From Anaerolineales bacterium (GTDB taxonomy: Bacteria > Chloroflexota > Anaerolineae > Anaerolineales > UBA11858): a DNA stretch of 64,000 nucleotides. Below are positions 45,580 to 63,754 of this stretch, one piece after another. A model generated the notes under the pieces. It did not search any database. It saw only the letters and a program-made list of their open reading frames with translations, and had not been told where the DNA came from. The DNA lies in the NCBI GenBank assembly GCA_049644605.1, contig JBARSF010000017.1, forward strand, positions 7,805 to 71,804, read 5' to 3'. The first letter of the stretch is position 1, and each line of letters starts with the position of its first letter. Made by a program: the position numbers and the translations under genes.

Positions 45580-45594
45580 GTCCTTAAAGAATTA

Positions 45595-45687
45595 TTAGCA
45601 CGGGGAGCCGAAGTTGAGGCTGAGAGGAAAACAATCGTTTTCGACCCGCGAACCTGATCCGGTTCATACCGGCGGAGGGATGCCTAG
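45595..45687 (+). promoter_or_regulatory. TPP (THI-box) riboswitch aptamer
   Basis: ggggagcc ... ggCTGAGAgg ... gACCCgcgAACCTGATCcGGtTcATaCCgGCGgAGGGA matches the conserved THI element. It lies upstream of thiamine genes. Confidence 0.85.
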
Positions 45688-45692
45688 ACAAA

Positions 45693-45717
45693 ACTCCGCC
45701 GACTGGCGGAGTTTTTT
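45693..45717 (+). terminator. Riboswitch expression-platform terminator
   Basis: actccgcc gact ggcggagt followed by TTTTTT. The aptamer segment ggcggag (45671-45677) duplicates the 3' arm and can form the alternative antiterminator with 45693-45700. Confidence 0.8.
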
Positions 45718-49603: not shown

Positions 49604-49613
49604 GGGGGCGTGG

Positions 49614-49689
49614 TGTAGCGGTTAACATGCGGCCCTGTCAAGGCCGAGATCGCCGGTTCGAATCCGGTCGTCCCCGCCAGGTAAAGAGA
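49614..49689 (+). tRNA. tRNA-Asp(GUC): tRNA-Asp (anticodon GUC), CCA encoded
   Basis: Folded by hand. Acceptor GGGGGCG/CGTCCCC, D stem GTGT/ACAT, anticodon stem CGGCC/GGCCG with loop CTGTCAA, T arm GCCGG-TTCGAAT-CCGGT, discriminator G, CCA. Confidence 0.9.
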
Positions 49690-49697
49690 ACCACTCG

Positions 49698-49724
49698 AAA
49701 AGAGTGGTTCTTTTGGTTTAAGTC
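49698..49724 (+). terminator. tRNA terminator hairpin (copy 1 of 3)
   Basis: gaaccactc gaaaa gagtggttc TTTT. Near-identical copies occur at 58686-58712 and 60294-60320. Confidence 0.8.
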
Positions 49725-49810
49725 CACACTAAGGACTTTTTACAGATCATGCCGTGAGGGATATGTTACACTGTCATTGTAGGTAATAAATAAATCTGAC
49801 AAAGGGTAAT

Positions 49811-49888
49811 GATAAATACTTATCCTTCACTGAGTCAGAAAATAGCTTATTCATTTATCACGCGTTTGAAAGCTAATTAACGTTAGGC
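49811..49888 (+). other. attI-like recombination site A (two 20-22-nt direct repeats + core GTTAGGC)
   Basis: gataaatacttatccttcac (49811-49830) and gaaaatagcttattcatttatc (49838-49859), then a 22-nt spacer ending taattaac, then GTTAGGC (49882-49888). The same layout occurs at 60421-60506. Confidence 0.6.
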
Positions 49889-49915
49889 ACCGTATCAATA
49901 AAAGGAGGTTAAACG

Positions 49916-50353
49916 ATGAAAAGTGTTTATAACACTGGTGATCGTGCATCAAAATGGATCCGTTGGATTGCACGTATTTGGTCCTCTCCGATCATAATTT
50001 ACTCTCTGATAATGGTTGCCGGCTATGCATGGAACTGGGTGACAACCGGTGTAGCAGACCCCTATGCGGTGGAAGGATATCCCCCCACAGAAGCCCTGCC
50101 CCCCATCTTAATGTTTCTGAGTATCTTGGGATTAGGCATCGCCTGGCGTTGGGAGAGACTAGGGGGAGCGATTACCCTTGTTTTCCTATTAGCAACGGTT
50201 TCGTTGCTTCTTATTCAAAGCCCGATCACTGATGATTTCTATCACTCAGCGATCCCTTATTTTATGTCGGTGGTGATTGCCATCCCTGGAATATTGTTCT
50301 TGGTATGTTGGTGGCGATCGAGAACGGTGCCAATAGTTAAGAACGGTGCCTAA
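49916..50353 (+). CDS. Cassette 1: small integral membrane protein, unknown function
   Basis: 145 aa, 4 hydrophobic segments, AGGAGG RBS. The stop TAA lies inside the R'' core GCCTAAC. Confidence 0.75.
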   Translation: MKSVYNTGDRASKWIRWIARIWSSPIIIYSLIMVAGYAWNWVTTGVADPYAVEGYPPTEALPPILMFLSILGLGIAWRWERLGGAITLVFLLATVSLLLIQSPITDDFYHSAIPYFMSVVIAIPGILFLVCWWRSRTVPIVKNGA

Positions 50354-50422
50354 CCCCCGCTGCACCCGACCCTTCGATCCGCCCTGCGGGCTACTCAGGG
50401 CAGGTGAGCTCTTCCGTTATGC
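50348..50422 (+). repeat. attC1 (75 bp)
   Basis: GCCTAAC ccccgctgcaccc ... gccctg/cagggc stem ... ggtgagctcttcc GTTATGC. The R'' core is the reverse complement of GTTAGGC at 49882. Confidence 0.85.
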
Positions 50423-50473
50423 GCTATCTTTTTTTTGTATGCTAAAGTTCGATGTGTTTGAAGGAGGAAAGCA

Positions 50474-51157
50474 ATGGATTTGTCCTTACTAAAACCATAT
50501 CATGGTTACCAATCATCAATTATTCCATTCTCTAGTGGTTATTATCTCTATCTTGCAAGCTGGGACAGCACACCAACCAGCTTTTCTTCCTTCTCCAATA
50601 TTTGGGTGGTCACGCCAGAAGATAAAAGAATACTATTCGCAGATCCTCCAGCTTCGAGCGAAATTGTCTGTATTTATCATGATTTCCATGAAATCTATGG
50701 AGCGTCAATATCTCTTGATTGGGCTTTAGAAAATCATCTCCGGATTCAATGTGCGTCTCTTAATAATGACAACGAACTGGACGCTGAATTTTACTTACAG
50801 GAGACTCTATCGTCACGATTGCTTGTTTCCCTTGCCAGTAGTCCCCCCACACGGTTCATGGTTTCCAAACCCCTGGTAACAATATCAAACTTCTTGGTGA
50901 ACTTATTTGTAGCCAAGGGAGGCTCGACATTACTTGGAAAAACTGAAACCGGTCAGACTTTCTATAATGGCTCGACTGACCGATTATTTAAAGTCATTCA
51001 AGGTTCTGCAACCTTGAATGGCAAGGATTTGGGAGAGGTTTCAAGACCCACTTGGCCTGTAGAATTTGGTGATGCTATTCCATTTGTTCAGCCTGTGATT
51101 AAGTTGGGAACTCTCTACATACCTTACGAAGAAGAAATGCTGGAGAATAGCGCATAA
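50474..51157 (+). CDS. Cassette 2: hypothetical soluble protein (227 aa)
   Basis: GGAGG RBS. The stop TAA lies inside the R'' core GCATAAC. No family recognised. Confidence 0.75.
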   Translation: MDLSLLKPYHGYQSSIIPFSSGYYLYLASWDSTPTSFSSFSNIWVVTPEDKRILFADPPASSEIVCIYHDFHEIYGASISLDWALENHLRIQCASLNNDNELDAEFYLQETLSSRLLVSLASSPPTRFMVSKPLVTISNFLVNLFVAKGGSTLLGKTETGQTFYNGSTDRLFKVIQGSATLNGKDLGEVSRPTWPVEFGDAIPFVQPVIKLGTLYIPYEEEMLENSA

Positions 51158-51275
51158 CCCCCGCTCCACCCGACAGCCGGTAAAGACGGAAGACGGGGGA
51201 CGGAGGACAGGAAAGGCAAAGCCCGGCTGCGGGTGTCCTTCGTTAGCTCAGGATAATTAAGCTCATCCGTTGGGA
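51152..51275 (+). repeat. attC2 (124 bp, composite 3' end)
   Basis: GCATAAC ccccgctccacccgacagccgg ... cccggctgcgggtg ... GTTAGCT (51242) ... ataattaagctcatcc GTTGGGA (51269). The R'' core is the reverse complement of GTTATGC at 50416. Confidence 0.8.
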
Positions 51276-51288
51276 GGCAACAAAAACT

Positions 51289-52173
51289 ATGTTGATTGAT
51301 CCAAACGAAAATCGTAAAAACATCGAAAAATACTTGAGTAAGAATCTGGGATACCAGGTAGAGTTAGTTCAAGTAACGAAGTTAACGAAAGGCACGCGAG
51401 AAGCCCCCTGGAAATTAGTGATTGAAGCTAATGGAAAAGATGAATCATATGTGCTTCAGTTAGATCAAAAGAGCCTGGATTATGAATATCAAGTTCTAAA
51501 AGTAATGGAACGGATTCCGATTCCCACTCCAAAAGCATATGGACTGGAATTATCAGGGAAAGAAATTGGAGTTCCATGTTACTTTAGTGATTTCATTGAA
51601 GGCGAATCACTGCTAGAGCCAATGCTTGCAGGTGATTTTTGGGCTGAAGAGTTGTACATCAATACAGTCAGTGAATTACAATCAGTCACAGAAGAAGAGT
51701 TAGGAAGTTTTGCCAAGACATTAAAATATGAAACCGCTGAAGATGTGTTGGAAGAAGCATATTCTGACCTGAAAACCGCATCGCGTTCTTTAGTTGATGA
51801 TGCATACAGAGAACTGAAAAACACTATGCTGGAGTTACCCGCAGTACAGTTTAGCAATGGGGATTTATGGCTAGAGAACTTTATCGTGAAAGATAGGAAA
51901 TTAGCGGGTGTTATCGATTTTCCAAACGCAACGTTTAGCGATCCGATATATGAGTTCTTATTGACATTCTTTGTTGCACCAGAACTGCAAGGACGGGGAA
52001 TAGAAGAACGGTATTGTCGCCAAATGGGATATGACCCGTCTGCACTTCATTGGTATCACGGCCTAGAGTATTTTGACACATGGCGCTGGGTCTTAAAAAC
52101 TGGCGAAGGTTTTGTTCATCATACAGCTGAAAGTTTAGAGACAGATTTACGGAATTGGTTAGGTGGTAAATGA
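51289..52173 (+). CDS. Cassette 3: aminoglycoside/choline-kinase-type phosphotransferase (APH family) protein
   Basis: 294 aa with a Brenner-like motif NGDLWLENFIV and a downstream VIDFPNATFSDPIYEF (DFG-like) segment. Confidence 0.7.
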   Translation: MLIDPNENRKNIEKYLSKNLGYQVELVQVTKLTKGTREAPWKLVIEANGKDESYVLQLDQKSLDYEYQVLKVMERIPIPTPKAYGLELSGKEIGVPCYFSDFIEGESLLEPMLAGDFWAEELYINTVSELQSVTEEELGSFAKTLKYETAEDVLEEAYSDLKTASRSLVDDAYRELKNTMLELPAVQFSNGDLWLENFIVKDRKLAGVIDFPNATFSDPIYEFLLTFFVAPELQGRGIEERYCRQMGYDPSALHWYHGLEYFDTWRWVLKTGEGFVHHTAESLETDLRNWLGGK

Positions 52174-52193
52174 CTAAAGAAGCAGACGTTGCC

Positions 52194-52320
52194 GCACAAC
52201 CCAAGTTGCACCGGACTTGGCGATAGCCAAGGGGGTACGTGGCGCGATTTGCTGATTCTAGTTTTGGTTCAAGGATGGATCAGAGCAAATACCGCCAAGC
52301 CAGTGAACAAACCGTTATCT
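52194..52320 (+). repeat. attC3 (127 bp, long family)
   Basis: GCACAAC ccaagttgcaccgg ... gcgcgatttgct ... ccagtgaacaaacc GTTATCT. The R'' core matches the upstream core GTTGGGA at only 5 of 7 positions. Confidence 0.7.
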
Positions 52321-52338
52321 GGCAAAGGAAGCCCTCTC

Positions 52339-53493
52339 ATGAGACTTAATCCATTCAAACTTGAACGCTACTTCGCTAAGCATGAGTTCTCGACCCCGTA
52401 TTTGCTATGTTCCTCGGATTGCGAAAGCATAGAACTGCGGGACCTGCTGGCCCTCGAACCAGGGGCACCAGAGCGGCTATCCGCGCTTTGGCTCGGCTAC
52501 ACGGAGTCACTAGGCAATCCTGAGCTTCGGCATGCCATAACAACACTGTATGATCATATAGAGGCCAATCAGGTTCTTGTGCACGCAGGAGCCGAAGAGG
52601 CGATCTTCAATTTCATGAACGTCGTTCTCAGCCCTGACGATCACGTCATCGTGCATTCGCCCCACTACCAGTCTCTTGGAGAGGTGGCTCGGAGTATCGG
52701 TGCCAACGTATCCGAATGGCAAGGCAATCCGGATAATACGTGGGAACTCGACCTTAAATTTCTGGAAAGTTCTCTCACCGCTCGTACGAAGGTGGTAGTG
52801 GTCAACTTCCCACACAATCCAACCGGGTTTCTGCCTAGGTCCGAGTTCGTACGCGAGCTATCGGCGCTCTCCGATCAGCACGGTTTCATCGTCTTCTCTG
52901 ATGAGGTGTACCGCGGACTGGAACTCGATCCGTCCGACCATTTACCCGCCTTCACCGATCTAAACAATCGCGCTGTATCGCTTGGTGTGATGTCGAAGAC
53001 CTACGGCCTCGCCGGATTGCGAATCGGCTGGATCGCGACTCGTGACGACCGTCTCTTCCGCGAGCTTGCAGCGTTCAAGGACTACACGACCATCTGCAAC
53101 AGTGCTCCAAGTGAGTTCCTGGCGACTCTTGCATTGCGACATGCCGAAGTAATTGTCGAACGAAACCTGCAGATCATCCGCGACAACCTCGATCGCCTCG
53201 ACTCTTTCTTCGACTCTCATACGGATCTGTTCGGCTGGTATCGTCCCAAGGCTGGGTCTATAGCATTCCCCTCGCTGCTACGGGGAGCGGTTGATGAGTT
53301 CTGCGCCGATCTGGCTGAAAAGTCAGGAGTCCTACTGCTGCCGGGAACCCTCTATGGAGAAGAGTACAACTCGTTCCGCATCGGCTTCGGCCGCAAGAAC
53401 TTGCCCGAATCTCTTAAAAGGTTCGAGGCGTACCTGCGAAGACCAGATAACAAGGCTAATTCAGCCGACGTAAAAAGCCGCGCTGCTAATTAG
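52339..53493 (+). CDS. Cassette 4: class I/II PLP-dependent aminotransferase
   Basis: MRLNPFKLERYFAKHEF N-terminus and an SKTYGLAGLRIGW lysine motif. Start moved to 52339 (AAGGAAG upstream) because the track start at 52189 lies inside attC3. The C-terminal codons read into attC4. Confidence 0.8.
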   Translation: MRLNPFKLERYFAKHEFSTPYLLCSSDCESIELRDLLALEPGAPERLSALWLGYTESLGNPELRHAITTLYDHIEANQVLVHAGAEEAIFNFMNVVLSPDDHVIVHSPHYQSLGEVARSIGANVSEWQGNPDNTWELDLKFLESSLTARTKVVVVNFPHNPTGFLPRSEFVRELSALSDQHGFIVFSDEVYRGLELDPSDHLPAFTDLNNRAVSLGVMSKTYGLAGLRIGWIATRDDRLFRELAAFKDYTTICNSAPSEFLATLALRHAEVIVERNLQIIRDNLDRLDSFFDSHTDLFGWYRPKAGSIAFPSLLRGAVDEFCADLAEKSGVLLLPGTLYGEEYNSFRIGFGRKNLPESLKRFEAYLRRPDNKANSADVKSRAAN

Positions 53494-53504
53494 CAGCGTT
53501 AGGC
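53445..53504 (+). repeat. attC4 (60 bp)
   Basis: AGATAAC aaggctaattcagcc ... gctgctaattagcagc GTTAGGC. The R'' core is the exact reverse complement of GTTATCT at 52314. Confidence 0.8.
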
Positions 53505-53510
53505 TGTTGA

Positions 53511-54350
53511 ATGAGTAAAGTGAAAATGATTAGTTTGGAAGAGATACGAATGATACGAATCGATGCTGGACCTTTCACTATGGGAACCAGCGAACGAGAG
53601 ATCGATATAATAGAAAGGCAAGATGATCTCGCCAAGAAATGGAGAATCAAAGGCAACTTCAGTAGAGAACAGCCACAATGCACTATTTCGCTGAAACCAT
53701 ACTTGATATCAAAGTATCCCGTAACAGTTGGGGAATACAGAAAATTCCTAAAAGCAAAAGGATATCAAACACGGCAGTATTGGACAGAAACGGGATGGTT
53801 ATGGGTGCAATCAAATAATAGAAAGCAACCTGATTATTGGAATGAACAAAAATGGACCTGGAATGATAAGCTCCCAGTGATAGGAGTAAGTTGGTATGAA
53901 GCAATGGCATATTGTCACTGGATATGTGAAAGTACAGGAAAGAAAGTGCGCCTGCCAACGGAAGCAGAGTGGGAAAAGGCAGCACGTGGAAGGGATAAGA
54001 GGATATATCCTTGGGGGAATGAGTTTGATGTAAATATGTGTAACACAAGATTGAGTGGACTGAATAAAACAATACCAGTTGATGAAGCTAGCCCAAGTTC
54101 CGAAAGCCCATATAAATGTTGTGACATGGCAGGGAACGCGTCTGAGTGGACGATAAGCGAATTCAAGCCATATCCTTACAAGGGAGAAAATGGAAGAAAC
54201 GAAATTGAAGGAGAGAAATTGCGGGTTGTTCGGGGAGGTTCTTGGTTCAAACCACAAATAAGAGCCAGAGTATCGGCTCGTGGGATGAACGATCCATTCT
54301 TTACAGATAACGATGTAGGATTTAGATTTGTGTGTGAAGCATATGGATAG
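53511..54350 (+). CDS. Cassette 5: formylglycine-generating enzyme (SUMF1/FGE-sulfatase) domain protein
   Basis: [35 protein letters not shown] and RVVRGGSW motifs. Start (53511 or 53526) is uncertain. Confidence 0.8.
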
Positions 54351-54357
54351 AAGCACA

Positions 54358-54481
54358 GCCTAACCACCGCTCCACCCGACAGCCAGGGGCGGGACCGGGG
54401 ACGAGGACGGAAGACCGGGAATAATAATCTGGCTGCGGGTGCCCTTCGTAAGCTCAGCATAATTAAGCTTATGCGTTAGGT
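54358..54481 (+). repeat. attC5 (124 bp, composite 3' end)
   Basis: GCCTAAC caccgctccacccgacagcc ... ggctgcgggtg ... GTAAGCT ... ataattaagcttatgc GTTAGGT. The R'' core is the reverse complement of GTTAGGC at 53498. Confidence 0.8.
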
Positions 54482-54503
54482 CGCAGTTTGTCAGGGAGTG
54501 ACT

Positions 54504-55169
54504 ATGATACGGGCTATTGTAGTGACAGTGGCATTATTCCTCCTCCTAGGAGGGTGCTTATTCGGCGGCGCCGGCACTATGTCATGGCCTATAGCTTGGG
54601 CTGTTCTGGGTATTTATTCCGCCTCCAAGGCGGCTACCTTCGCCTTCGTCGACCCAGCACTCATCAAGGAACGGGCGGCACCCGGGCAGGGCGTGGACCG
54701 CGTTGATAAGGTGCTCGCGACCTTGGGATATCTGGGCCTGTACCCTGGTTCATTTGTGGCCGCTGGGCTTGATGCGGTTCGCTTCGGCCCCTCCATCCCC
54801 ATCCCCCAATTTATCAAGCTGACGGCGCTCCTCATCTTTGCTCTCGGCTATGGCATAGCATTCTGGGCAGTACTTTGCAACCCGTTCTTCTCCACCTTTG
54901 TGCGAATTCAGGATGATCGTGACCACTCGGTCGTCTCATCAGGCGCGTATGCTCTGGTTCGGCATCCTGGCTATGCGGGCGTTCTTCTCGCCCACTTGGC
55001 CCTTCCGCTCGCGCTTGGATCTATCTGGTCTTTGGTACCAGCGGCTGTGGGCACGATCTTGTTCGTGGCGCGAACAGCACGCGAAGATCAAACGCTTCGA
55101 GACCATCTTGTCGGGTACCGTGAGTATCAAACCCGGGTTCGTTGGCGACTTTTACCAGGAGTTTGGTAG
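54504..55169 (+). CDS. Cassette 6: isoprenylcysteine carboxyl methyltransferase (ICMT/PEMT superfamily) membrane protein
   Basis: GAYALVRHPGYAG ... REDQTL ... YREYQTRVRWRLLPGVW. Start set to the ATG at 54504 (GGGAG 5 nt upstream); the track start is a GTG at 54498. Confidence 0.8.
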   Translation: MIRAIVVTVALFLLLGGCLFGGAGTMSWPIAWAVLGIYSASKAATFAFVDPALIKERAAPGQGVDRVDKVLATLGYLGLYPGSFVAAGLDAVRFGPSIPIPQFIKLTALLIFALGYGIAFWAVLCNPFFSTFVRIQDDRDHSVVSSGAYALVRHPGYAGVLLAHLALPLALGSIWSLVPAAVGTILFVARTAREDQTLRDHLVGYREYQTRVRWRLLPGVW

Positions 55170-55202
55170 CCGGATGCCTGCGGGTGAGCTCTTTCGTTGG
55201 GC
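55170..55202 (+). repeat. attC6 remnant (3' half only)
   Basis: ccggatgcctgcgggtgagctctttc GTTGGGC retains the L'/R' half. The expected R'' core (ACCTAAC) and L'' box are absent. Confidence 0.6.
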
Positions 55203-55232
55203 GCGTCTTGGAAACGGTCACGGGAGGTTACC

Positions 55233-55904
55233 ATGAAACATGCCGTTGAATTATTTTTTAGGATTGCCCTTTTGGTGCTCACCTTGTTTATTTGGCTGTG
55301 GGCGCTCAATCAACCGAGTTCAAATACAATGAATCTGATCCTCATTGCAGGAAGTGTATTGTTGGTATTCCCAACCGTTTGGCTCGGGAGGATGATCCTC
55401 GACAGACAGCCAACAACGAGCCGCGCCGCCTGGATAACCATCTTTGTCCATTATGCCGTGTTGATCATATTTGGCATTGCCATCATTCAAGCAGTAACCA
55501 CTCATCAAGATTGGTCTGGCTGGGTACTCCCAGTACCAACTGAAATCGGCTTGTTGTTAGTCATTATTACCGGGGCAGCCGCACTGTTCTCCGTGATAAA
55601 CCTTGCCTTAAAAGGGCTCGGTGCACCTTTTGCGATTGCGCTCAGCAAGAAATTGGCGGTAGATTGGATGTATGCCTGGACGCGTAATCCCATGGTGCTT
55701 GCAACTCTGGCCCTTCTGCTGTCATTGGGAATCTGGTTTCAGTCAGTGCTGTTTGTGCTCTGGGTACTCATCCTGTTTACACCGGCATTGCTTGTCTTCG
55801 TGAAAGTGTATGAAGAACGAGAACTAGAGTTACGCTTTGGGGCATCCTATCTGGAGTACAAATCCAGAACGCCGATGTTGTTTCCAAGAAAGCCAAGAGG
55901 TTAA
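55233..55904 (+). CDS. Cassette 7: second ICMT/PEMT-superfamily membrane methyltransferase
   Basis: MYAWTRNPMVLA ... YEERELELRFGASYLEYKSRTPMLFP. Start set to the ATG at 55233 (GGGAGG upstream). Confidence 0.78.
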   Translation: MKHAVELFFRIALLVLTLFIWLWALNQPSSNTMNLILIAGSVLLVFPTVWLGRMILDRQPTTSRAAWITIFVHYAVLIIFGIAIIQAVTTHQDWSGWVLPVPTEIGLLLVIITGAAALFSVINLALKGLGAPFAIALSKKLAVDWMYAWTRNPMVLATLALLLSLGIWFQSVLFVLWVLILFTPALLVFVKVYEERELELRFGASYLEYKSRTPMLFPRKPRG

Positions 55905-55914
55905 ACCATGTGCC

Positions 55915-56041
55915 GCCCAACACCGGCTCCAGCGGACAGCGGCTCTGCCGCTCGAAAACCGGTGCGATTTGCCAGAAATAGTCCATAATTGAGAAAGAGT
56001 CTCGCCAGCTCCGCGGCTGCGGCTGAGCTCATCCGTTGGGC
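55915..56041 (+). repeat. attC7 (127 bp, long family)
   Basis: GCCCAAC accggctccagcgg ... ggtgcgatttgcc ... ggctgagctcatcc GTTGGGC. The R'' core is the reverse complement of GTTGGGC at 55196. Confidence 0.85.
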
Positions 56042-56084
56042 GGCAATAAATGACTCGCTGGAATATTAGACAAAGGAAGAACAC

Positions 56085-56465
56085 ATGAAGCTGGCAAGAT
56101 GGACTTTTCGAACCGCAGGTATCTTTGGTTTAATCGTGATGGTTCCACTACTTTTTGCTGAGAAGTTGATCGTTCAGATCATGCCACCAGTCGTAAATCA
56201 TCCAGAGTTCTTTTATGGTTTCGTTATTCTGAATATATGCTGGCAGATTTTGTACCTTTTCTTGTCCAAGGATCCGGTCCGATTTCGCCCTATAATGATC
56301 CCTTCCTTTTTCGCAAAAGCAAGCGGACCGGTTGCTTTGATGTGGTTATATTTTCAAGGTCGGATTTCCAGGCAGTGGATTACGACTACAATACTGGATG
56401 GAGTTTTCGCTATCCTATTCTTAATCTCGTTTTGGTTAACAGGGCAGGAAACCAGCAGTGCTTGA
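56085..56465 (+). CDS. Cassette 8: small integral membrane protein, unknown function
   Basis: 126 aa, 4 hydrophobic segments, AAGGAAG RBS. Confidence 0.7.
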   Translation: MKLARWTFRTAGIFGLIVMVPLLFAEKLIVQIMPPVVNHPEFFYGFVILNICWQILYLFLSKDPVRFRPIMIPSFFAKASGPVALMWLYFQGRISRQWITTTILDGVFAILFLISFWLTGQETSSA

Positions 56466-56594
56466 ATACAATAGAGAAGACCAAAAAAAGACTCTAATTT
56501 CGTAGTTGTTTTAAGCAGCCTTCCGGAAGATCCTTATTTCACTTGTTTCTCTCAAGATTTGATTTTGGAAAATAAGAAGTCAAGGGAAAAAGCC

Positions 56595-56651
56595 GCCCAA
56601 CCCCCCAGGCACATGACCGTGCTGCGCTGGGGAGGAAGCGGCGCGTTTTGC
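56595..56651 (+). repeat. attC8 (57 bp, non-canonical R' core)
   Basis: GCCCAAC cccccagg ... ctgggg aggaagcggcgc GTTTTGC. gccGCCCAAC is the reverse complement of GTTGGGCggc at 56035. Confidence 0.7.
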
Positions 56652-57041
56652 AGCATTTGGCTCTGGCTAAACCAGCTTCAGGAACAAAAACGCACGGCAA
56701 ATGATGTCATCGTTAGCCTGGCAAAACTTGCAGATTGAATAATCATTTGGCTGCCTGGACCCGGAATAAGGATTCTGTGAAAATTAATTATGTGGTTTCC
56801 GGAACGATTCGTGCTGGTTATTTTATGATTTATGCTGATCGAGATAAAAATATGGTGGCGTGAATATTCATAAGAAACAATCATTGAATCACCCTTAATA
56901 AATCTCGCTTTTTTAGCTTGATCCCATTTCGGGTAGAAGATGGTGCTGATTATCAGGTTTAAATCCCTTATTCTTGCTATAATCTAGTAGTTACTCAAAA
57001 CCAGATTCTGGATATGTGTTGGACCTCTAGGAGTAATGATT

Positions 57042-58523
57042 ATGGCGCATGATGTGTTTATCAGCTACTCAACCAAAGACAAGACTGTCGCTGATACGAT
57101 TGCAGCCTCACTGGAGGGAAAACAAATCCGCTGCTGGTATGCGCCCAGAGACATCAAAGCCGGGGCCGATTGGGGGGAAGAGATCGCCCAGGCCATTAAC
57201 GCCAGCACGATTTTTTTGCTGATCTTCTCCAGCAGCGCCAACCAGTCTCAACGGGTGCTGGATGAGCTGAATCTGGCCATAACAAAAGAAGCGGTTATTC
57301 TGCCCTTCCGGATCGAAAAGTTGGATCCCAGCGGCGCCATGCAGCTGCATCTTTCTTCCAGGCATTGGTTGGATGCATTCCTACCCTCCTGGGAAAAACA
57401 CATTGATAACCTTGTCAACAGCGTTTTCTCCAATCTGGAAACCGGCGAAAGCACCGCAGCAGTTGATTATGCCAGATCTTTTGATCAAACCTCAAAACCG
57501 AAAAAAAGAAAACTCTGGCTGTTTGGGGCTGTTGGGACCGTTGTTATTGCCGGCTTGGGGGCAATTTTTGGCCTCCCAAAGCTTTTTGGCCCACCTGATA
57601 TCATCCCAACAGAATTAGCACCGACTGTAACTACTCATTCGACGGCGATTATTCCCACCGACACCAGCGTTCCCACACCCATTCTCCCGACCCTGGGCAG
57701 CGCAGAAGCTCCCCTGATCTGGATGTACGTTCCCAGGGATGATATCGACTTTAACGAGGTCAGTACCACAGTTGATGAAATCGTCAAGGATTTTCAAGAA
57801 ATAAATCCGAATTTATCCCTGAAGATTATCCCCGCTACCAATGAAATCACAATAATTGAAGCGCTCTGTGCCGGGGAAGCGCACATCGGATCACTTAATG
57901 CCTTCACATTCATGGCCGCGTCAAGCCGGGACTGTGCTGAAGCCAAATTAATCTGGAGTGCGTACGGCGATATCAACGTTGGAGGTATGATCGTTACTAA
58001 CGCAGACAGTGGGATTACTGATATTTCAGCATTAGAAGGTCAACCGCTTTGCATCCCTAACTATACTAGTACTTCCGGATGGGTATTGCCCTCCCTCGAG
58101 ATTCAAGCATCCATAGAGAGGGATCCTGATTCCTTTTTTAGTGAGATTATCGAAAAAAATGGACATGATAAAGTTATTTGGGAAGTTTATAACGGGAATT
58201 GCATTGCGGGAACAGCCTTTTATGATGCTCGGTTAAATTATTCAGATATCCCTGATATCAATGACCGTGTTGTTATACTCTCTACTACCACCTCTGTCCC
58301 CCTATCAAACTTCAGTTTCAGTAAAATCATTCCACCCGAACTCTCCCAAAAGCTGATTGCCTTTTTCCTCAATTCTGCGGAATTAGATAATTTATCAATC
58401 ATTTGTGGGTATTCCCATCATACAAATCCCATCAAATTAATTGAGATCAATGATTATTACTATAACGAGATCTGGGATTTGTTCCAGCGGGCCGGGGAAA
58501 ACCCGGAAGATTATTTACGGTAG
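57042..58523 (+). CDS. TIR domain - single TM helix - PhnD-like periplasmic solute-binding domain fusion protein
   Basis: N-terminus DVFISYSTKDK ... CWYAPRDI ... IFLLIFS ... VLDELN (TIR_2-like, conserved Glu). KPKKRK then TM LWLFGAVGTVVIAGLGAIFGL. C-terminus ALCAGEAHIGSLNAF, GMIVTNADSGITDISALEGQPLCIPNYTSTSGW (phosphonate-bd-like). AGGAG lies 8 nt before the ATG at 57042. Confidence 0.8.
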   Translation: MAHDVFISYSTKDKTVADTIAASLEGKQIRCWYAPRDIKAGADWGEEIAQAINASTIFLLIFSSSANQSQRVLDELNLAITKEAVILPFRIEKLDPSGAMQLHLSSRHWLDAFLPSWEKHIDNLVNSVFSNLETGESTAAVDYARSFDQTSKPKKRKLWLFGAVGTVVIAGLGAIFGLPKLFGPPDIIPTELAPTVTTHSTAIIPTDTSVPTPILPTLGSAEAPLIWMYVPRDDIDFNEVSTTVDEIVKDFQEINPNLSLKIIPATNEITIIEALCAGEAHIGSLNAFTFMAASSRDCAEAKLIWSAYGDINVGGMIVTNADSGITDISALEGQPLCIPNYTSTSGWVLPSLEIQASIERDPDSFFSEIIEKNGHDKVIWEVYNGNCIAGTAFYDARLNYSDIPDINDRVVILSTTTSVPLSNFSFSKIIPPELSQKLIAFFLNSAELDNLSIICGYSHHTNPIKLIEINDYYYNEIWDLFQRAGENPEDYLR

Positions 58524-58632
58524 ATAACTCTTACCCCTGTGGAATAAAGCGGGAGAATTCAAGCGAAACATCATTCTTATGATCGGCGGGAGCAGAACTG
58601 ATTAAGGTCTGGGAACCACTGCTATAAAATAT

Positions 58633-58677
58633 GGGGCAATAGCCGAAATCGCCGGTTCGAATCCAGTCGTCCCCTCA
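58633..58677 (+). pseudogene. Decayed tRNA-Asp copy (3' half retained, D and anticodon arms missing)
   Basis: agccgaaatcgccggttcgaatccagtcgtcccctca (58641-58677) matches tRNA positions 49652-49689 with about five differences. It is preceded by ggggc, resembling the 5' acceptor strand. Confidence 0.75.
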
Positions 58678-58875: not shown

Positions 58876-60069
58876 ATGATGGCTAAACAATATTTGAAGT
58901 TTAAGCTTTGGATAATCCCAGTCCTGCTGATTTGGATGGCGATCAGCACATCTTGCGAGCGTGTGGAGGGGGGAGAGGACCAAGAAACCCCGGCATTGCC
59001 GCAGGCGACTGTCCCGGTAGCAACCCTGGAGGATAATCAATCATCCAGCGAGGATGGAGAACCTGAAGATTTATCGACCCCTCAGTCGCCAGAACACCTG
59101 GTTTCCGGGCTTGTCCTTGGAAGTATGAGCGAAACATTCTATGTGGATCTGACCGGCCAGGTTGTACTCCTGGTGGATCAAACTCTTGCGCAGCTCAACG
59201 CTGACCATGATCTAGTTCTTTTTGCCCGTGAGGATCCAGCCAATTATAAAAACGATATCTGGATTTTGGATCTAGAGAGCGGGGAAGAACAAAACTTGAC
59301 CCAAACTCCAGACCGGGATGAAATCTTCCCTCAGTGGTGGCCGGCCCATCCCGAGATGGCTTTTTTTGTATCGGGGGAAGAAACCGGGATGATGAACAGC
59401 GAACAGCCGACAATCGTCAACCTGGATGGTTCTGGATATCAAGTCCTTGATGAGAATCAAGGGGGACCCAATACTTTGGCGTCCGATGGAACAATGATTG
59501 CTTACGGGGGATTTGATCAAGTTGGGGTTATCTATCATTGGGATGGTAAATTTGAAGACTTCTACCCCGAGGACTATGGCTTAAATGTAGAGAAAATATT
59601 CCAACCCGCATTCTCGCCGGACGGGCGCTTCCTGGCCTGGAAAGTGGCCGGCGACTTAAATGGGGATGGCAGCTACGCAATTGGCCTGGCAATCTTTGAT
59701 CTCCAGGAACGAACAGCGATCCTGACCCATGTCTACATCGTGCAGGGAGGAGGTATGGTCCCTCATTATGTCGCCTGGAGCCCGGATGGGAGTTGGATTG
59801 CTTATGTCACTTTCGGCGAGGGACCCGCTGTTGAGCGAGAACCCAATCTGTGGATTCTGCGCCCGGACGGCAGCCAGGAAATGTTTGTTGACATTGGCCT
59901 TGACCCTACCTGGAGCCCCGATGGCTCAAGTCTGGCGTACATTCGCACGACCATGGAAGGTGAGCAAGGACTGCAAATCATGGATCTCAAGAGCTTAAGC
60001 ATCACGCCAATTGATGATCTGTCGTTCCCGGGTGCACTGAATTTCATCATCGACTGGATTCAGCCTTAA
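58876..60069 (+). CDS. Lipoprotein with TolB-like PD40 beta-propeller repeats
   Basis: Signal peptide with lipobox-like ISTSC. Repeated FSPDGRFLAW, WSPDGSWIAY and WSPDGSSLAY motifs. Confidence 0.78.
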   Translation: MMAKQYLKFKLWIIPVLLIWMAISTSCERVEGGEDQETPALPQATVPVATLEDNQSSSEDGEPEDLSTPQSPEHLVSGLVLGSMSETFYVDLTGQVVLLVDQTLAQLNADHDLVLFAREDPANYKNDIWILDLESGEEQNLTQTPDRDEIFPQWWPAHPEMAFFVSGEETGMMNSEQPTIVNLDGSGYQVLDENQGGPNTLASDGTMIAYGGFDQVGVIYHWDGKFEDFYPEDYGLNVEKIFQPAFSPDGRFLAWKVAGDLNGDGSYAIGLAIFDLQERTAILTHVYIVQGGGMVPHYVAWSPDGSWIAYVTFGEGPAVEREPNLWILRPDGSQEMFVDIGLDPTWSPDGSSLAYIRTTMEGEQGLQIMDLKSLSITPIDDLSFPGALNFIIDWIQP

Positions 60070-60255
60070 GATCAGATCATGGGGGTCCTGGCGGCCGCGA
60101 AGCACATCCCGGCGGCTCAACCGAGCGCCATAAGTGACTGCGGTTTTTCGCCCTTCAGCGACGATACCGGCACATCCCGGGAAATCGCCTTTGCGAAAGT
60201 GGCAGCCCGGGTGCAGGGCACCGAGCTGGCCGCGGCCCAGCTGGGGGTTGCCTAA
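60070..60255 (+). pseudogene. Fragment resembling the C-terminus of a cobalamin-independent methionine synthase (MetE-like) family gene
   Basis: Visibly GC-rich 186-nt stretch open in frame from the preceding stop. It encodes ...SDCGFSPFSDDTGTSREIAFAKVAARVQGTELAAAQLGVA*. There is no N-terminal part, and at 58 aa from its ATG it is too short for the track. Confidence 0.45.
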
Positions 60256-60293
60256 AGCCAGTCTCTAAGAGATAAGTTTCATTTAATTAAAAA

Positions 60294-60320
60294 GAACCAC
60301 TCGTGAGAGTGGTTCTTTTT
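60294..60320 (+). terminator. Terminator hairpin copy 3 of 3
   Basis: gaaccactc gtga gagtggttc TTTTT, with stems identical to 49698-49720. Confidence 0.75.
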
Positions 60321-60420
60321 GTGTTTAAGGACAACCCCACGCCAGGTTTTGTCAGCGGCGTAACAACTATGCTACACTGTCATTAGAGGGAGTAGATTTC
60401 GCCGGGTACGATGGATGCCA

Positions 60421-60506
60421 GATAATAACTTATTCATTTAGCAGGAGACATACTGGATAACTACTTATTCAGTTATCCCGCAGTTACAAGATAATTAACG
60501 TTAGGC
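60421..60506 (+). other. attI-like recombination site C
   Basis: gataataacttattcatttagc (60421-60442) and gataactacttattcagttatc (60456-60477), then a 22-nt spacer ending ataattaac, then GTTAGGC (60500-60506). Confidence 0.6.
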
Positions 60507-60550
60507 CACTCGTTTCTGAAAGTGTCTATTCAAGTAAGGATAATCTCAAG

Positions 60551-61501
60551 ATGAATGACAAATTGGATATGAAACGCATTACTATTTTCCTTACCTTCAC
60601 CTTTGGAATCGCCTGGCTCAATGGCTTGATCATCTATCTTACTGGGGGCTTAGTCGATAGCCCGGAAATTATCCCAGGCAGTGGAATCACTATCTCCCTG
60701 GTGCTTTTGGCTGGGGGCTATATGTGGGCACCTGCGTTGGCACACATTCTCACCCGTCTGATCACGCGCGAAGGCTGGAAGGACACTTACTTGCGTCCCC
60801 GAAGGCAAGGATGGCAATACTGGATTGCGGCCTGGTTCATACCGTCTATCATGACTATCCTAGGTGCGGGACTATTCTTTGTTGTTTTTCCAAAATACTT
60901 TGATCCATCGCTCAAAGTGCTTCAAGAGATGCTAGCGAAAACGGGCCAGGACACCTCGACCCCTTTGTGGACGATTGTTATTTTTCAAACTCTCTTTGGT
61001 GTACTGATTGCTCCGTTCATCAACAGCTTATTTTCTTTTGGCGAAGAGTTTGGTTGGCGGGCCTATTTACAGCCCAAACTTATGCCGCTCGGTGGACGTA
61101 AAGCTATACTGTTGATAGGACTGATCTGGGGTGTGTGGCATTGGCCCGTTATCGCAATGGGGCACAATTATGGTCTTGAATATCCTGGTGCACCTTGGCT
61201 GGGTTTGTTGATGATGGTGTGGGTCACAATAGGCCTTGGAACATTCTTGGGATGGCTAACAGTACGGGCAGGCAATGTATGGCCGGCCGTAATCGGTCAC
61301 GCTGCCATTAACGGTATTAGCGGACTGGCTGCCGTATGCGTATTGGGCAACCCTAATCCTTTGCTGGGCCCATTGCCAATTGGTCTAATAGGCTCGGCGG
61401 CATGGGTTTTGCTGACTTTGGCGATTCTCCTGAAGCCTGGTACGCTCGACGCGGGTCATGTTGAGTCGCTCCAGGTGGATGAAGCAAATCCAAAAGTGTA
61501 A
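60551..61501 (+). CDS. Cassette 1': CPBP family intramembrane glutamic endopeptidase (CAAX protease/Abi family)
   Basis: EEFGWRAYLQP, GVWHWP and IGHAAING motifs; multiple TM segments. Confidence 0.82.
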   Translation: MNDKLDMKRITIFLTFTFGIAWLNGLIIYLTGGLVDSPEIIPGSGITISLVLLAGGYMWAPALAHILTRLITREGWKDTYLRPRRQGWQYWIAAWFIPSIMTILGAGLFFVVFPKYFDPSLKVLQEMLAKTGQDTSTPLWTIVIFQTLFGVLIAPFINSLFSFGEEFGWRAYLQPKLMPLGGRKAILLIGLIWGVWHWPVIAMGHNYGLEYPGAPWLGLLMMVWVTIGLGTFLGWLTVRAGNVWPAVIGHAAINGISGLAAVCVLGNPNPLLGPLPIGLIGSAAWVLLTLAILLKPGTLDAGHVESLQVDEANPKV

Positions 61502-61558
61502 TATCAGACGATTCTGAAAATTGAAGAAGTACAAGCAGATTTCGAGAATAGGGGTGCG

Positions 61559-61576
61559 GCCTAACCCAAGTTAGGC
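61559..61576 (+). repeat. attC1' reduced to an 18-bp palindrome
   Basis: GCCTAAC ccaa GTTAGGC, with no inner L boxes. Both cores agree with the cassettes on either side. Confidence 0.65.
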
Positions 61577-61649
61577 CTCATAAATCTATGAATTCTTATT
61601 GTTGATACAATTTGGTAATAAATCGAATAACAAAAATAGAAAAAAAGGA

Positions 61650-61892
61650 ATGAAGGAAATGATACATTTACATGAAAAAGGAACGAAAACTCTAGTAGGA
61701 AATATTAGCGAACAACAGCTACAAGTTTTGATAGATCAGCTCGAAGAAGAATGGTTAGAAGATAAAGATTATTCAATAACACCCTTAATACTTGATGCTT
61801 TTGAAGCTGAAGGTGTTGATTCGGAATTGATCTCAATATTATGGGCTGCTCTTGGGGATCGAGATGAGATCGTGGTTGTTTGGAGTAAATGA
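61650..61892 (+). CDS. Cassette 2': small acidic hypothetical protein (~78-80 aa)
   Basis: ORF rich in D/E (LIDQLEEEWLEDKDY). Start ambiguous (61650 or 61659; the track start at 61599 is unlikely). Confidence 0.55.
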   Translation: MKEMIHLHEKGTKTLVGNISEQQLQVLIDQLEEEWLEDKDYSITPLILDAFEAEGVDSELISILWAALGDRDEIVVVWSK

Positions 61893-61899
61893 ATGTGAG

Positions 61900-62000
61900 G
61901 CCTAACCCCCGCTCCACCCGACAGCCGGTTAAGGACGGACGACCGCGGACGGAGGACCGGAAAGGTAAAGCCCGGCTGCAGGTGAGCTATTCCGTTATGC
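61900..62000 (+). repeat. attC2' (101 bp)
   Basis: GCCTAAC ccccgctccacccgacagccgg ... cccggctgcaggtgagctattcc GTTATGC. The R'' core is the reverse complement of GTTAGGC at 61570. Confidence 0.85.
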
Positions 62001-62004
62001 GTCA

Positions 62005-62610
62005 TTGATCAATACAGGAGTTAAACAATTTCTTTGGAGATTTCTGGTGGAATCAATACTTAGATTAAAGAATCGGAAGATTCGTTTCTTATGGTCCTTT
62101 CTATTCCTTTTTATTACTTCTAGTATTGCTGCATTTCTTGTCTACTATGGAATCATATTGTTGAAAATTGGAAATAATTATGATGCCCCAATCAGGATTT
62201 CTGATGGATATCACGGAGGTTATCTATCGTTGATCTCTGAACACCCTTTCCCTTTTCTTATGTCTATTTCACTAATTCTCGCAATTTCAGGAACCCTATG
62301 GGTTGTTAGTATACTACCTAAATTTCAACGCTTCCAATTCTTACAGATTTTACTAATCCCGTGGATTTCACTAATTATCGCGAGTCCCATCTGGGGTTTG
62401 ATATGGTCAATTTATCGCTGGCCCCCTCAAGGATTTTCAGATTCCTCCGTAATGTGGATGTACTATCGGCATGACTTATTATTCGGGCTTAGATTAGGTT
62501 GGTTATCAGCTCTCCTGTCATTTCCAATTAACATTATCAGTTACGTTTTCGCAGTGGGATTGATCTACCTTAGTTCAAGAATATTCATGATGAAAAACCT
62601 AGACATTTAA
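62005..62610 (+). CDS. Cassette 3': AT-rich integral membrane protein, unknown function
   Basis: About 5 TM segments. The track start is a TTG at 62005; a GTG at 62047 with GGAGA 6-7 nt upstream is an alternative. Confidence 0.65.
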   Translation: MINTGVKQFLWRFLVESILRLKNRKIRFLWSFLFLFITSSIAAFLVYYGIILLKIGNNYDAPIRISDGYHGGYLSLISEHPFPFLMSISLILAISGTLWVVSILPKFQRFQFLQILLIPWISLIIASPIWGLIWSIYRWPPQGFSDSSVMWMYYRHDLLFGLRLGWLSALLSFPINIISYVFAVGLIYLSSRIFMMKNLDI

Positions 62611-62624
62611 CCAGTATTTTATCC

Positions 62625-62749
62625 GCATAACCTCCGCTCCACCTGCGCGCCGGGCAAGCCGGGCGCCCGATCGCTTCTCCCCTTACCAGTTTTTTAATCT
62701 ATAATCAACATTAACTGGCCCCGGCGCCAGGTGAGCTCATCCGTTGGGC
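62625..62749 (+). repeat. attC3' (125 bp)
   Basis: GCATAAC ctccgctccacc ... ggcgccaggtgagctcatcc GTTGGGC. The R'' core is the reverse complement of GTTATGC at 61994. Confidence 0.85.
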
Positions 62750-62788
62750 GGACGTGGCAATCAGGCTGTCACACCAGAGAGAACATCA

Positions 62789-63592
62789 ATGACCACGAAT
62801 ACCAGATTGACGCTAACCCCCGAGCAAGAAACCCTGCTGATTACACTCTATGCTAAGGCGCAACCAGGTAATCCGCTGTTCTTTGACCAGACGGCCCAAG
62901 ACGTTCTGAATCGGGTGGACTATGACTTTACCCGCTTGCATGTCCCCTTCATGACCGTCTTTCTGGTTTGCCAGCGGGCCAAGAAGCTGGATGCCATCAC
63001 CCGTGACTTCTTGGCTGAGCATCCCGGCGGCGTGGTGTTGCAGCTGGGTTGCGGTTTGGATAATCGCTTCTGGCGTGTAGACAACGGTAGCGTCACCTGG
63101 TATGACCTAGATATGCCACAGGTGGTAGAGCTTCGCCGTCAGTTCTTCACTGGAAGCGAACGCTATCACCTGATCGCCGCTTCCGTGACAGACCGGGAAT
63201 GCCTGGCTACAGTCGTGTCAGGTGGGCGGCCGGTGCTTGTGGTGGCGGAAGGATTGCTGATGTATCTGGGCGAGGCCGAGGTGCGGCGGCTAGTGCTCCA
63301 ATTGCACGAGACCTTTCCAGGCTGTCGACTGATCTCGGACGTTTTTAGTCGATTGATGGCACGCTCGGCTTCCAAACATCCTTCGCTAAAATATACCGGT
63401 GCGACCCTCGGTTGGGGCATCGATGATGCGCATGAGTTGGAGGCTTGGGCACCCGGCCTTCGCCTCTTGGAAGAGTGGTATTTCACTGACGACCCCGACT
63501 TGGCTCGTCTTTCTTTTGGGTATCGCATGGCATATAGGCTTTATGGCGCTTTACTGAAACGGGCCCATCGTATCGTGTACTATCAACTGTAA
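62789..63592 (+). CDS. Cassette 4': class I SAM-dependent O-methyltransferase (TcmP / leucine carboxyl methyltransferase-like)
   Basis: LTPEQETLLITLYAKA ..., VVLQLGCGLDNRFWRV and WYDLDMPQVVELRR motifs. Start moved to the ATG at 62789 because the track start lies inside attC3'. Confidence 0.78.
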   Translation: MTTNTRLTLTPEQETLLITLYAKAQPGNPLFFDQTAQDVLNRVDYDFTRLHVPFMTVFLVCQRAKKLDAITRDFLAEHPGGVVLQLGCGLDNRFWRVDNGSVTWYDLDMPQVVELRRQFFTGSERYHLIAASVTDRECLATVVSGGRPVLVVAEGLLMYLGEAEVRRLVLQLHETFPGCRLISDVFSRLMARSASKHPSLKYTGATLGWGIDDAHELEAWAPGLRLLEEWYFTDDPDLARLSFGYRMAYRLYGALLKRAHRIVYYQL

Positions 63593-63601
63593 TCTATGCC
63601 C

Positions 63602-63724
63602 GCCCAACAACCGCTTGCAGCCGACCCCGCGGGCTGCGCGATTTGCTAACAAAGGCACTGGTATGGGACCCTTTAATAGCAAGCCAATATCCGAGCGGGG
63701 CAGCTGAGCTCAAAACCGTTATGC
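63602..63724 (+). repeat. attC4' (123 bp, long family)
   Basis: GCCCAAC aaccgcttgcagcc ... ctgcgcgatttgct ... cagctgagctcaaaacc GTTATGC. ccGCCCAAC is the reverse complement of GTTGGGCgg at 62743. Confidence 0.85.
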
Positions 63725-63754
63725 AGCTTTGAGTTTTTCTTCTGAGATTGATCA

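Follow-up and report, generated by a model that had tools for sequence, protein, structure and literature searches.

The 64-kb stretch of DNA analyzed here (the window, on contig C17 of a 3.76-Mb MAG of 74 contigs that is 96.9% complete) holds two arrays of gene cassettes, each starting at a site that resembles the attI of an integron, and intI is absent from the whole window, so neither locus adjoins one. Are these true attI sites, and, if so, which integrase filled them? Both arrays begin, as the initial annotation had it, at a common junction, TAATTAAC-G|TTAGGC, and its two positions were verified (G of GTT at 49882 and 60500). The 15-mer TAATTAACGTTAGGC is unique to the two starts, with exactly two occurrences in the window (49874–49888 and 60492–60506) and zero matches expected by chance (100 shuffles of the window). 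A TATGyTACACTGTCATT box and two repeats of ~22 nt precede each array start. The parts of the two platforms are as follows.

49762–49778, + strand: platform-1 promoter box TATGTTACACTGTCATT, extended −10 TG-T-TACACT, directed toward the array (the upstream motif of the initial annotation); predicted
49811–49830, + strand: attI #1 repeat 1, GATAAATACTTATCCTTCAC; degenerate, a putative accessory IntI-binding box pair
49838–49859, + strand: attI #1 repeat 2, GAAAATAGCTTATTCATTTATC; family consensus ATAAC-N~10-RTTATC
49860–49888, + strand: attI #1 spacer (CGCrTTTGAAAg) and core TAATTAAC|GTTAGGC; crossover between G49882 and T49883
60349–60384, + strand: platform-2 promoter, TTGTCA, 18 nt, TG-n-TACACT, within TATGCTACACTGTCATT; predicted by promoter scan
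60421–60442, + strand: attI #2 repeat 1, GATAATAACTTATTCATTTAGC (sequence reading, repeat search)
60456–60477, + strand: attI #2 repeat 2, GATAACTACTTATTCAGTTATC (sequence reading, 40-copy alignment)
60478–60506, + strand: attI #2 spacer and core TAATTAAC|GTTAGGC; crossover between G60500 and T60501

A repeat search between the two regions gave matches of 43 nt (84%), 25 nt (88%), and 30 nt (80%). Exactly 22 nt separate the end of repeat 2 from the G of GTT in both copies, an interval that nearly all of the 40 aligned copies, from at least five genomes, have in common. The upstream motif TACACTGTCATT is found at 49767–49778 and 60373–60384. The spacing, the shared motif, and the positions of the repeats all hold as initially described; the simple direct-repeat nature of the latter does not, each of them being an inverted GATAAY...RTTATC pair. 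The word on which all four repeats were said to be built, ACTTATTCAKTTA, is exact in both array-2 repeats and carries one mismatch in array-1 repeat 2, but four in array-1 repeat 1. It corresponds to the center and right arm of a box pair and occurs in one subfamily only; likewise, the ACTTATTCA center is restricted to one subfamily and is not conserved across the family.

The platform consensus reads, 5′ to 3′, terminator-like hairpin (in many copies), extended −10, box pair 1 (GATAAY-N~10-RTTATY), box pair 2 (ATAAC-N9–10-RTTATC), and a fixed 22-nt segment, in which CGCAnTTGAAAnA and the L box TAATTAAC lie and which leads into G|TTA. When the 19 copies of the genome studied were aligned with MAFFT, and 40 copies drawn from several genomes without gaps, the best-conserved columns were CGCA-TTGAAA-ATAATTAAC-GTTA; conservation stops right after GTTA, and the downstream sequence is unrelated from copy to copy. 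The 40-copy alignment also shows conserved ATAA and TTATC columns and nearly invariant GTTA columns, with the GTT crossover inside a GTTRRRY R box that has an inverted L box. We read the repeats as box pairs in double-stranded DNA (GATAAY-N9–10-RTTATC) rather than as hairpins. The attI region forms a stable fold on neither strand (z = −0.1 and −0.4), and no covariation between the box arms was found beyond the conserved ATAA/TTAT, which fits a double-stranded protein-binding site, like known attI sites. With arms that do not covary, strands without a stable fold, and no Rfam match there, a hairpin or RNA element was rejected as an explanation of the repeats. The GTTAT within the boxes resembles the R′ cores (GTTATGC) of attC sites of the same genome, which makes it reasonable to suppose that IntI binds the boxes.

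The upstream motif is predicted to be an extended −10 promoter aimed at the array. A TATGyTAyACT box lies 95–125 nt before the crossover in 13 of the 19 copies of the genome studied and is also found between intI and attI in congeners. A consensus promoter scan returned TTGTCA-18-TACACT with an upstream TG for copy 2; for copy 1 the expected box was not called, and only the extended −10 is convincing on reading the sequence. The box before attI #1 is found 3′ of tRNA-Asp in two congeners (G005 and G007) at loci without attI, and it nearly equals the intI-linked Pc of another, G002, whose box is TATGTTACACTGCCATTAT. This promoter may be native to the tRNA-Asp locus or may have been brought in as an integron Pc. 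Genome-wide enrichment of the TATGCTATACT box was not supported, its 164 hits (at most one mismatch) being close to a rough estimate of the chance level; only its fixed position within the modules is meaningful.

The position of the module in relatives bears directly on its identity. At the 12 congener intI loci that we read, the core TAATTAACGTTA lies 158–175 nt upstream of the divergent intI start, with the TATGCTATACT box in between (G014, G009, G015, G024, G011, G003, and G016, as well as G002, G007 with two copies, G046, and G010). The full-length intI genes of the first seven genomes score 444–470 bits against the TIGR02249 profile, whose cut-off is 265. Both intI remnants of the genome studied (contigs C32 and C35) also carry the module ~150–180 nt upstream, on the opposite strand and directed toward the cassette array. 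This intI-proximal position is the defining position of attI and Pc. The subfamily to which the two window copies belong had no intI-linked member among the 14 intI-linked sites examined. An intI with a different attI, which the initial annotation had named as a counter-case, was not found in the genome studied; in one relative with 10 modules (G021), the sole intact intI has an upstream region unlike the module.

Downstream of the two junctions lie the following elements.

49883–56043, + strand: array 1, with clear attC sites at 50348, 51152, 54358, and 55915 plus partial ones; a decayed attC-like stretch extends to ~56720
49883–50422, + strand: first cassette of array 1, a DUF7670 ORF (49916–50353; Pfam) and an attC (50348–50422, GCCTAAC ... 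GTTATGC)
60501–64000, + strand: array 2, running beyond the window end, with further attC sites at 61900, 62625, and 63600
from 60501, + strand: first cassette of array 2, a CPBP/Rce1-like protease gene (60551–61501; Pfam), closed by a mini-attC
61559–61576, + strand: 18-bp mini-attC GCCTAAC-CCAA-GTTAGGC, closing the first cassette of array 2

The attC sites start with GCCTAAC or GCATAAC...CCGCTCCACCCGAC and end with ...GAGCTCWTCCGTTRKGC, and when their bottom strands are folded, the outer (R) boxes pair and so do the inner (L) boxes, around an internal loop. The attC-type motif has more than 100 matches genome-wide. [quoted passage not shown] The initial annotation had also considered that the same segment might be found without cassettes; in the genome studied, most copies are followed by them.

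The junctions carry a record of how the first cassettes arrived. Eight words occur at the junction of the 19 copies (GTTAGGC, GTTATGT, GTTAGGG, GTTAGCA, GTTGGAG, GTTAGGA, GTTAGGT, and GTTATGC). The exact reverse complement of the junction 7-mer lies just 3′ of the first ORF in 12–14 of the 19 copies, and two more have it with one mismatch; the chance of finding a given 7-mer in a 60-nt stretch is ~0.004. Copies in relatives show the same complementarity between junction 7-mer and first attC. In the window, GTTAGGC at 49882 is matched by GCCTAAC at 50348, the R″ of the first cassette and its exact reverse complement, and GTTAGGC at 60500 by GCCTAAC at 61559. Upon attI × attC insertion, the TTRRRY of the cassette itself comes to the attI junction and the complementary R″ stays at the far end. 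The covariation of the junction 7-mer with the R″ of the first attC is hence the signature of such insertion. The boundary between conserved platform and variable cassettes is exact, and the downstream sequences are unrelated in three genomes that share the tRNA-Asp locus. The intI-adjacent position, the homology boundary at G|TT, and the junction/attC covariation all agree with the attI reading of the initial annotation, and together they indicate that both are genuine attI sites, which took up cassettes by crossover at G|TT.

The genome studied contains ~19 attI modules, and only two of them adjoin intI, in both cases a pseudogene. A degenerate 31-nt pattern, allowing at most one mismatch, gave 14 matches in this genome, 10 in G021, five in G019, four in G011, and zero to two in the other 33 congeners (one each in the near-closed genomes G003 and G046); the reversed control pattern gave none in the 37 genomes. 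A profile HMM built from 21 copies of relatives only produced 18 hits at E ≤ 5e-5 in the genome studied, both window copies included (attI #1, E = 6e-7; attI #2, E = 1.3e-8), and one more at E = 0.03. Most well-assembled congeners hold zero to two modules, and three others hold 4–10. In the species-representative collection, exact matches came from Anaerolineales-type MAGs in all cases but one, a MAG labelled Nitrosomonadaceae. Modules lie on large contigs with core genes (C17, C35, C54, and C58), several are on contigs of 125–320 kb, and on five contigs two or three modules occur together; the high copy number is thus no artefact of binning. Some small module-bearing contigs of the 74-contig MAG could be mis-binned.

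Tandem placement behind another array is seen for eight modules. By their variable part, the modules group into subfamilies that several genomes have in common. Between the two window copies 40% of the 42 variable positions differ, and each has closer relatives, on other contigs and in other genomes, than the other window copy. They are thus old paralogues, and a recent local duplication of one attI is excluded. The initial annotation had called the sites duplicated, which does not fit this divergence; it had also called a duplicated attI without intI unusual, which understates the matter, with ~19 sites instead of two.

What integrase could have served these sites? All contigs of the genome studied were searched with the TIGR02249 profile at its cut-off (265), and no match above it, hence no intact intI, was found. 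The best matches were N-terminal fragments of 110 and 58 bits, at C32:14003–14311 and C35:115107–115316. Both are deletion pseudogenes: the C32 copy joins ~105 N-terminal residues directly to the last ~10, and in the C35 copy two segments are deleted. A complete integron, with a functional intI adjacent to attI and cassettes, was accordingly not found in the genome studied. Nor did an integrase turn up in or beside the arrays, Pfam showing no recombinase domain on any ORF from 41 to 64 kb. By comparison, 21 of 41 sampled relatives of the genus have an intI above the cut-off. One of them, G011, combines a single intact intI with at least five attI modules, including one downstream of tRNA-Asp as in the window, and relatives with one intact intI carry 4–10 modules.

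Since only two of ~19 platforms adjoin intI, and both genes are broken, we infer that the window platforms were served in trans by an integrase encoded elsewhere. At present the arrays are probably static; only an intact intI in the ~3% of the genome missing from the assembly, or one gained by transfer, would change this. No duplicated cassettes of at least 95% identity were found in the genome, a weak test given that MAG assembly would collapse such repeats; nothing thus indicates recent shuffling. The initial annotation had offered a trans-acting integrase or a lost one as the explanation of such sites. The two are not exclusive: G011 fits the former, and the two broken intI genes fit the latter.

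The surroundings of the two platforms are those of a tRNA-Asp locus.

49604–49679, + strand: intact tRNA-Asp(GTC) gene, directly upstream of platform 1 (ARAGORN; Rfam tRNA, 65.6 bits)
49687–49715, + strand: terminator-like hairpin AGAACCACTC-GAAAA-GAGTGGTTCT with T run, one of three homologous copies (sequence reading)
58642–58674, + strand: displaced 3′ part of tRNA-Asp, 94% identical, starting just 3′ of the anticodon loop
58681–58712, + strand: second copy of the tRNA-Asp terminator hairpin (repeat search)
58876–60255, + strand: PD40 beta-propeller gene with an in-frame TAA at 60067–60069 (Pfam PD40, translation, tblastx synteny)
60289–60320, + strand: third terminator hairpin, 14-bp perfect stem, upstream of platform 2 (repeat search)

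The hairpin at 49687–49715, for which homologous hairpins are present 3′ of tRNA-Asp in congeners too, is a predicted terminator that would insulate platform 1 from tRNA transcription; a simple terminator scan did not call it. The thiamine ABC permease gene and tRNA-Asp are syntenic throughout the genus. In most congeners the locus consists of tRNA-Asp, the terminator, and then ordinary genes, including the PD40 gene, a native neighbor of tRNA-Asp there. In the window the order is tRNA-Asp, terminator, promoter, attI #1, array 1, a TIR-domain gene, the tRNA-Asp 3′ part, terminator, and the PD40 gene, after which come terminator, promoter, attI #2, and array 2. Congeners of the G003 type represent the empty site (tRNA-Asp, terminator, and PD40 gene with no array); with the G003 state as reference, the array-1 unit is an insertion. 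Following the PD40 gene, congeners have a terminator and a GTTACACT promoter at a position matching the platform-2 promoter. The context of the PD40 gene differs in G021 and G011.

The displaced 3′ part (58642–58674, 94% identical to 49643–49675) and the intact tRNA-Asp gene bracket array 1. The unit at 49680–58641 has thus the marks of a tRNA island, a tRNA gene with a direct repeat of its 3′ part and an empty site in relatives; as to an integrase of its own, no recombinase domain was found on any of the 10 ORFs from 49916 to 58523. G011 and G021 likewise carry an attI behind tRNA-Asp, terminator, and promoter. Cassettes behind the tRNA-Asp-linked attI sites of G000 (the genome studied), G011, and G021 showed no similarity by tblastx. 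The sites of G000 and G011 belong to different subfamilies, so turnover at one orthologous site is indistinguishable from independent arrivals: cassettes may have been replaced at an old orphan site, or platforms may have reached this tRNA separately.

The association with tRNA extends beyond this locus. The genome has 34 tRNA fragments outside tRNA genes, and 13 of these lie at most 3 kb from an att site, as against 9.7% of the genome. Nine or 10 modules (about half) follow a same-strand tRNA gene or tRNA fragment at a distance of 140–600 nt. On contig C73, a degenerate attI with a cassette comes after an intact tRNA-Met, and 3.2 kb further along lies a 3′ fragment of tRNA-Met. Contig C39 has two tandem attI-plus-cassette units bounded by three tRNA-Met′ fragments. 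On C43, a promoter with the 5′ half of tRNA-Arg is repeated five times in tandem (100% identity over 21–39 nt), and behind one of the five copies stands an attI with three or four cassettes. Fragments of tRNA-Asp and tRNA-Met begin at the anticodon loop, the classical crossover region for one class of tyrosine integrases. Tyrosine recombinase genes adjoin tRNA-Arg (C10) and tRNA-Met (C51) and are candidate integrases. No tRNA gene was found within 1.5 kb of intI in the canonical integrons of relatives, and the tRNA link is a property of the orphan modules.

This pattern is that expected of repeated site-specific integration of small units with an attI platform at their head, and the platforms may travel as tRNA-targeting units. 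A fuller version of the idea, which we put forward tentatively and regard as possible though somewhat doubtful, is that attI and promoter form the leading end of small integrase-less units that insert at the anticodon-loop side of tRNAs (Asp, Met, Val, and Arg) and build up in tandem. IntI would move the cassettes, and a tRNA-targeting recombinase acting in trans would move the platforms. The outcome would be a distributed integron, with many independently transcribed first positions and a single or even foreign integrase.

A simpler account of the orphan sites would be that each intI-less module is the stump of a complete integron whose intI was deleted, with no use in trans ever. The intI gene is indeed visibly decaying in the genome studied, as the C32 and C35 deletion copies show, and the same first cassette (184 aa, core GTTAGGA) stands behind an intI-linked attI in G024 and behind an orphan attI on C58 here. 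Yet no intI remnants are present upstream of 17 modules, so that 17 clean deletions would be required, and eight modules stand in tandem behind other arrays. Moreover, the terminator and promoter upstream of both window modules are also present at the same loci in congeners that lack attI, and the relatives that have a single intact intI nonetheless carry 4–10 modules. We consider this account unlikely.

Readings that leave out the integron altogether fare much worse. Placed after a promoter and ahead of the first gene, the module would be transcribed, and its dyad-symmetric boxes are like repressor targets; a transcriptional operator or 5′-leader RNA element with no role in recombination is therefore conceivable. 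But conservation ends at G|TT regardless of the downstream gene, the junction 7-mer covaries with the first attC, the module is linked to intI at 12 congener loci, and there is no Rfam match, stable fold, or stem covariation. This reading is already largely refuted, and we give it very little credence. We hold it just as improbable that the module is the end (att or terminal repeat) of some mobile element other than an integron, with the cassette arrays as coincidental neighbors. Such an element would account for a module that is multi-copy, dispersed, one-sided, and often beside tRNA fragments; a partner end, however, inverted or direct, was not found, every well-resolved copy precedes attC-bounded cassettes in the same orientation, and in canonical integrons the module holds the intI-proximal place.

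The best explanation, and in our judgment a highly probable one, is that both sites are bona fide attI sites of a chromosomal integron family of this Anaerolineales (Chloroflexota) genus, equipped with a terminator and an outward extended −10, served in trans, and probably frozen now. Following the mechanism known from integron biology, IntI protomers would occupy the core as duplex DNA (L box ATAATTAAC, R box GTTAGGC), together with the GATAAY/RTTATC boxes upstream of it. Bound IntI would synapse with the folded bottom strand of the attC of a circular cassette, and one strand would be exchanged between G and TT. The cassette would thereby be placed immediately 3′ of the promoter and hence be expressed.

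The attI1 site of class 1 integrons spans ~65 bp and comprises direct repeats DR1 and DR2 and a simple site of L and R boxes, with crossover in GTTRRRY. The sites described here are similar to attI1 in their G|TTAGGC crossover at the boundary of platform and first cassette, in their two upstream repeats at fixed spacing, in having a predicted cassette promoter upstream, and, in the canonical copies of relatives, in the divergent intI. Unlike in attI1, the repeats are dyads (GATAAY-N9–10-RTTATC) and not single direct boxes, and the L box abuts the R box (TAATTAAC|GTT); the two are not known to share sequence beyond the GTTAGGC core. There are, in addition, ~19 sites in the genome studied, mostly without intI, and IntI binding to them is putative.

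CALINs are about as frequent as complete integrons; attI is unknown for most integrons and for this reason was not searched near CALINs, and intI pseudogenes were found near only 5% of CALINs (Cury et al., 2016; PMC4889954). Off-target insertion, intI loss, and rearrangement have been proposed as their origins. The arrays described here are CALINs by definition, yet each starts at an attI with its own predicted promoter and an upstream terminator. The Vibrio cholerae superintegron (attIA, VCR repeats) likewise has a lineage-specific attI and a homogeneous attC family, is chromosomal, and holds many cassettes of unknown function. It has, however, one intI and one attI with a very long, largely silent array, whereas here there are many short arrays, each with attI and a predicted promoter. 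With tRNA-integrated genomic islands of the anticodon-loop att class our system shares the position of array 1 between tRNA-Asp and its displaced 3′ part and, elsewhere in the genome, tandem units bounded by tRNA-Met′ and tRNA-Arg′ fragments; unlike in these islands, the bracketed unit has no integrase gene, and its cargo is an integron platform with cassettes. A limited literature search turned up neither a paper that deals with multiple or orphan attI sites in Chloroflexota nor a description of a CALIN as a complete platform minus the enzyme, an arrangement repeated ~19 times in the genome studied.

These results suggest that integrase-less cassette arrays can still be real platforms for capture and expression. 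A genus-wide attI can be defined from sequence, and in this genome it heads nearly every array. Integrase-less arrays can accordingly be complete docking and expression platforms rather than debris or off-target insertions, which touches on the origin and function of CALINs, both open questions in the field. A single integrase, possibly acquired by transfer, could load many chromosomal sites, and a cassette pool split into ~19 promoter-headed mini-arrays would have many more of its cassettes expressed than a single long array that is mostly silent. Given the recurrent link to tRNA fragments, whole platforms may be mobile as well, at a second level. Congeners supply intact IntI together with cognate attI and attC sequences, which makes the idea, and with it CALIN function, testable.

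The only integron-integrase genes (intI) in the genome that holds the window (G000) are two deletion pseudogenes. The one on contig C32 (13985-14347; L001) retains ~105 residues from the N-terminus fused to the last ~10, and that on contig C35 (115093-115320; L002) has suffered an internal deletion and then truncation. The congener genome G021 has a single full-length intI, whose upstream region (L017, contig C106) differs and lacks the TAATTAACGTT core. G021 nevertheless carries 10 modules of the attI family, and this intI may have either a second type of attI or a site that has diverged. The promoter stretch of this intergenic region, TATATAATACAGATAAGC, was found again upstream of the C43 module in G000. 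On contig C58 of G000, the attI module has a first cassette that also occurs in the integron beside intI in a second congener, G024; the non-coding stretch upstream of this module (C58:212500-212900) is GC-rich and appears structured.

Three kinds of site or junction stand out within the two cassette arrays of the window:

51236-51276 and 54440-54480, composite right ends of two long attC sites, each with two GTT cores
53482-53504, short palindrome GCTGCTAATTAGCAGC followed by GTTAGGC, inside array 1
61559-61576, reduced attC, GCCTAAC-CCAA-GTTAGGC, lacking L boxes

In the composite ends, a GATAATTAA or CATAATTAA box similar to the L box of attI separates the two GTT cores; such ends could be left over from the formation of attI x attC hybrids. 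The palindrome junction, placed between the aminotransferase and FGE-sulfatase genes, is attI-core-like or minimal attC-like. The cores of the reduced attC, the first of array 2, still match the adjoining cassettes.

Three further features lie before array 1, at the distal end of its unit and beyond it:

45591-45697, TPP riboswitch (Rfam RF00059, 64.4 bits)
57036-58523, ORF of 495 aa in which a TIR domain at the N-terminus is fused to a periplasmic binding domain of the phosphonate type
58876-60255, PD40 beta-propeller gene, native to the locus in congeners

Downstream of the riboswitch lie the gene for thiamine pyrophosphokinase and a gene pair for a solute-binding protein and a permease; this is an ordinary operon for thiamine salvage and uptake that ends just 5' of tRNA-Asp. 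The TIR fusion ORF, possibly a gene for defence or signalling, lies at the far end of the array-1 unit and lacks a clear attC. The PD40 gene is interrupted by an in-frame TAA (60067-60069), beyond which the C-terminal 55 codons are conserved with the frame unchanged; it is probably a fresh pseudogene.

Elsewhere in G000, a TTGACT-N17-TATAAT promoter joined to the 5' half of tRNA-Arg(TCG) occurs in seven copies (contigs C43, C22 and C19), which match at 100% over 21-39 nt. Copies on C43 are located as follows:

423-461
1955-1993
4055-4075
9458-9496
14100-14124

At least five of the seven are followed on the 3' side by a related stretch of ~200 nt with repeated TTGCACC words, and the intact tRNA-Arg on contig C10 is adjoined by an integrase gene. 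The repeated copies look like the product of tandem accumulation by elements integrating at the anticodon loop of tRNA-Arg.
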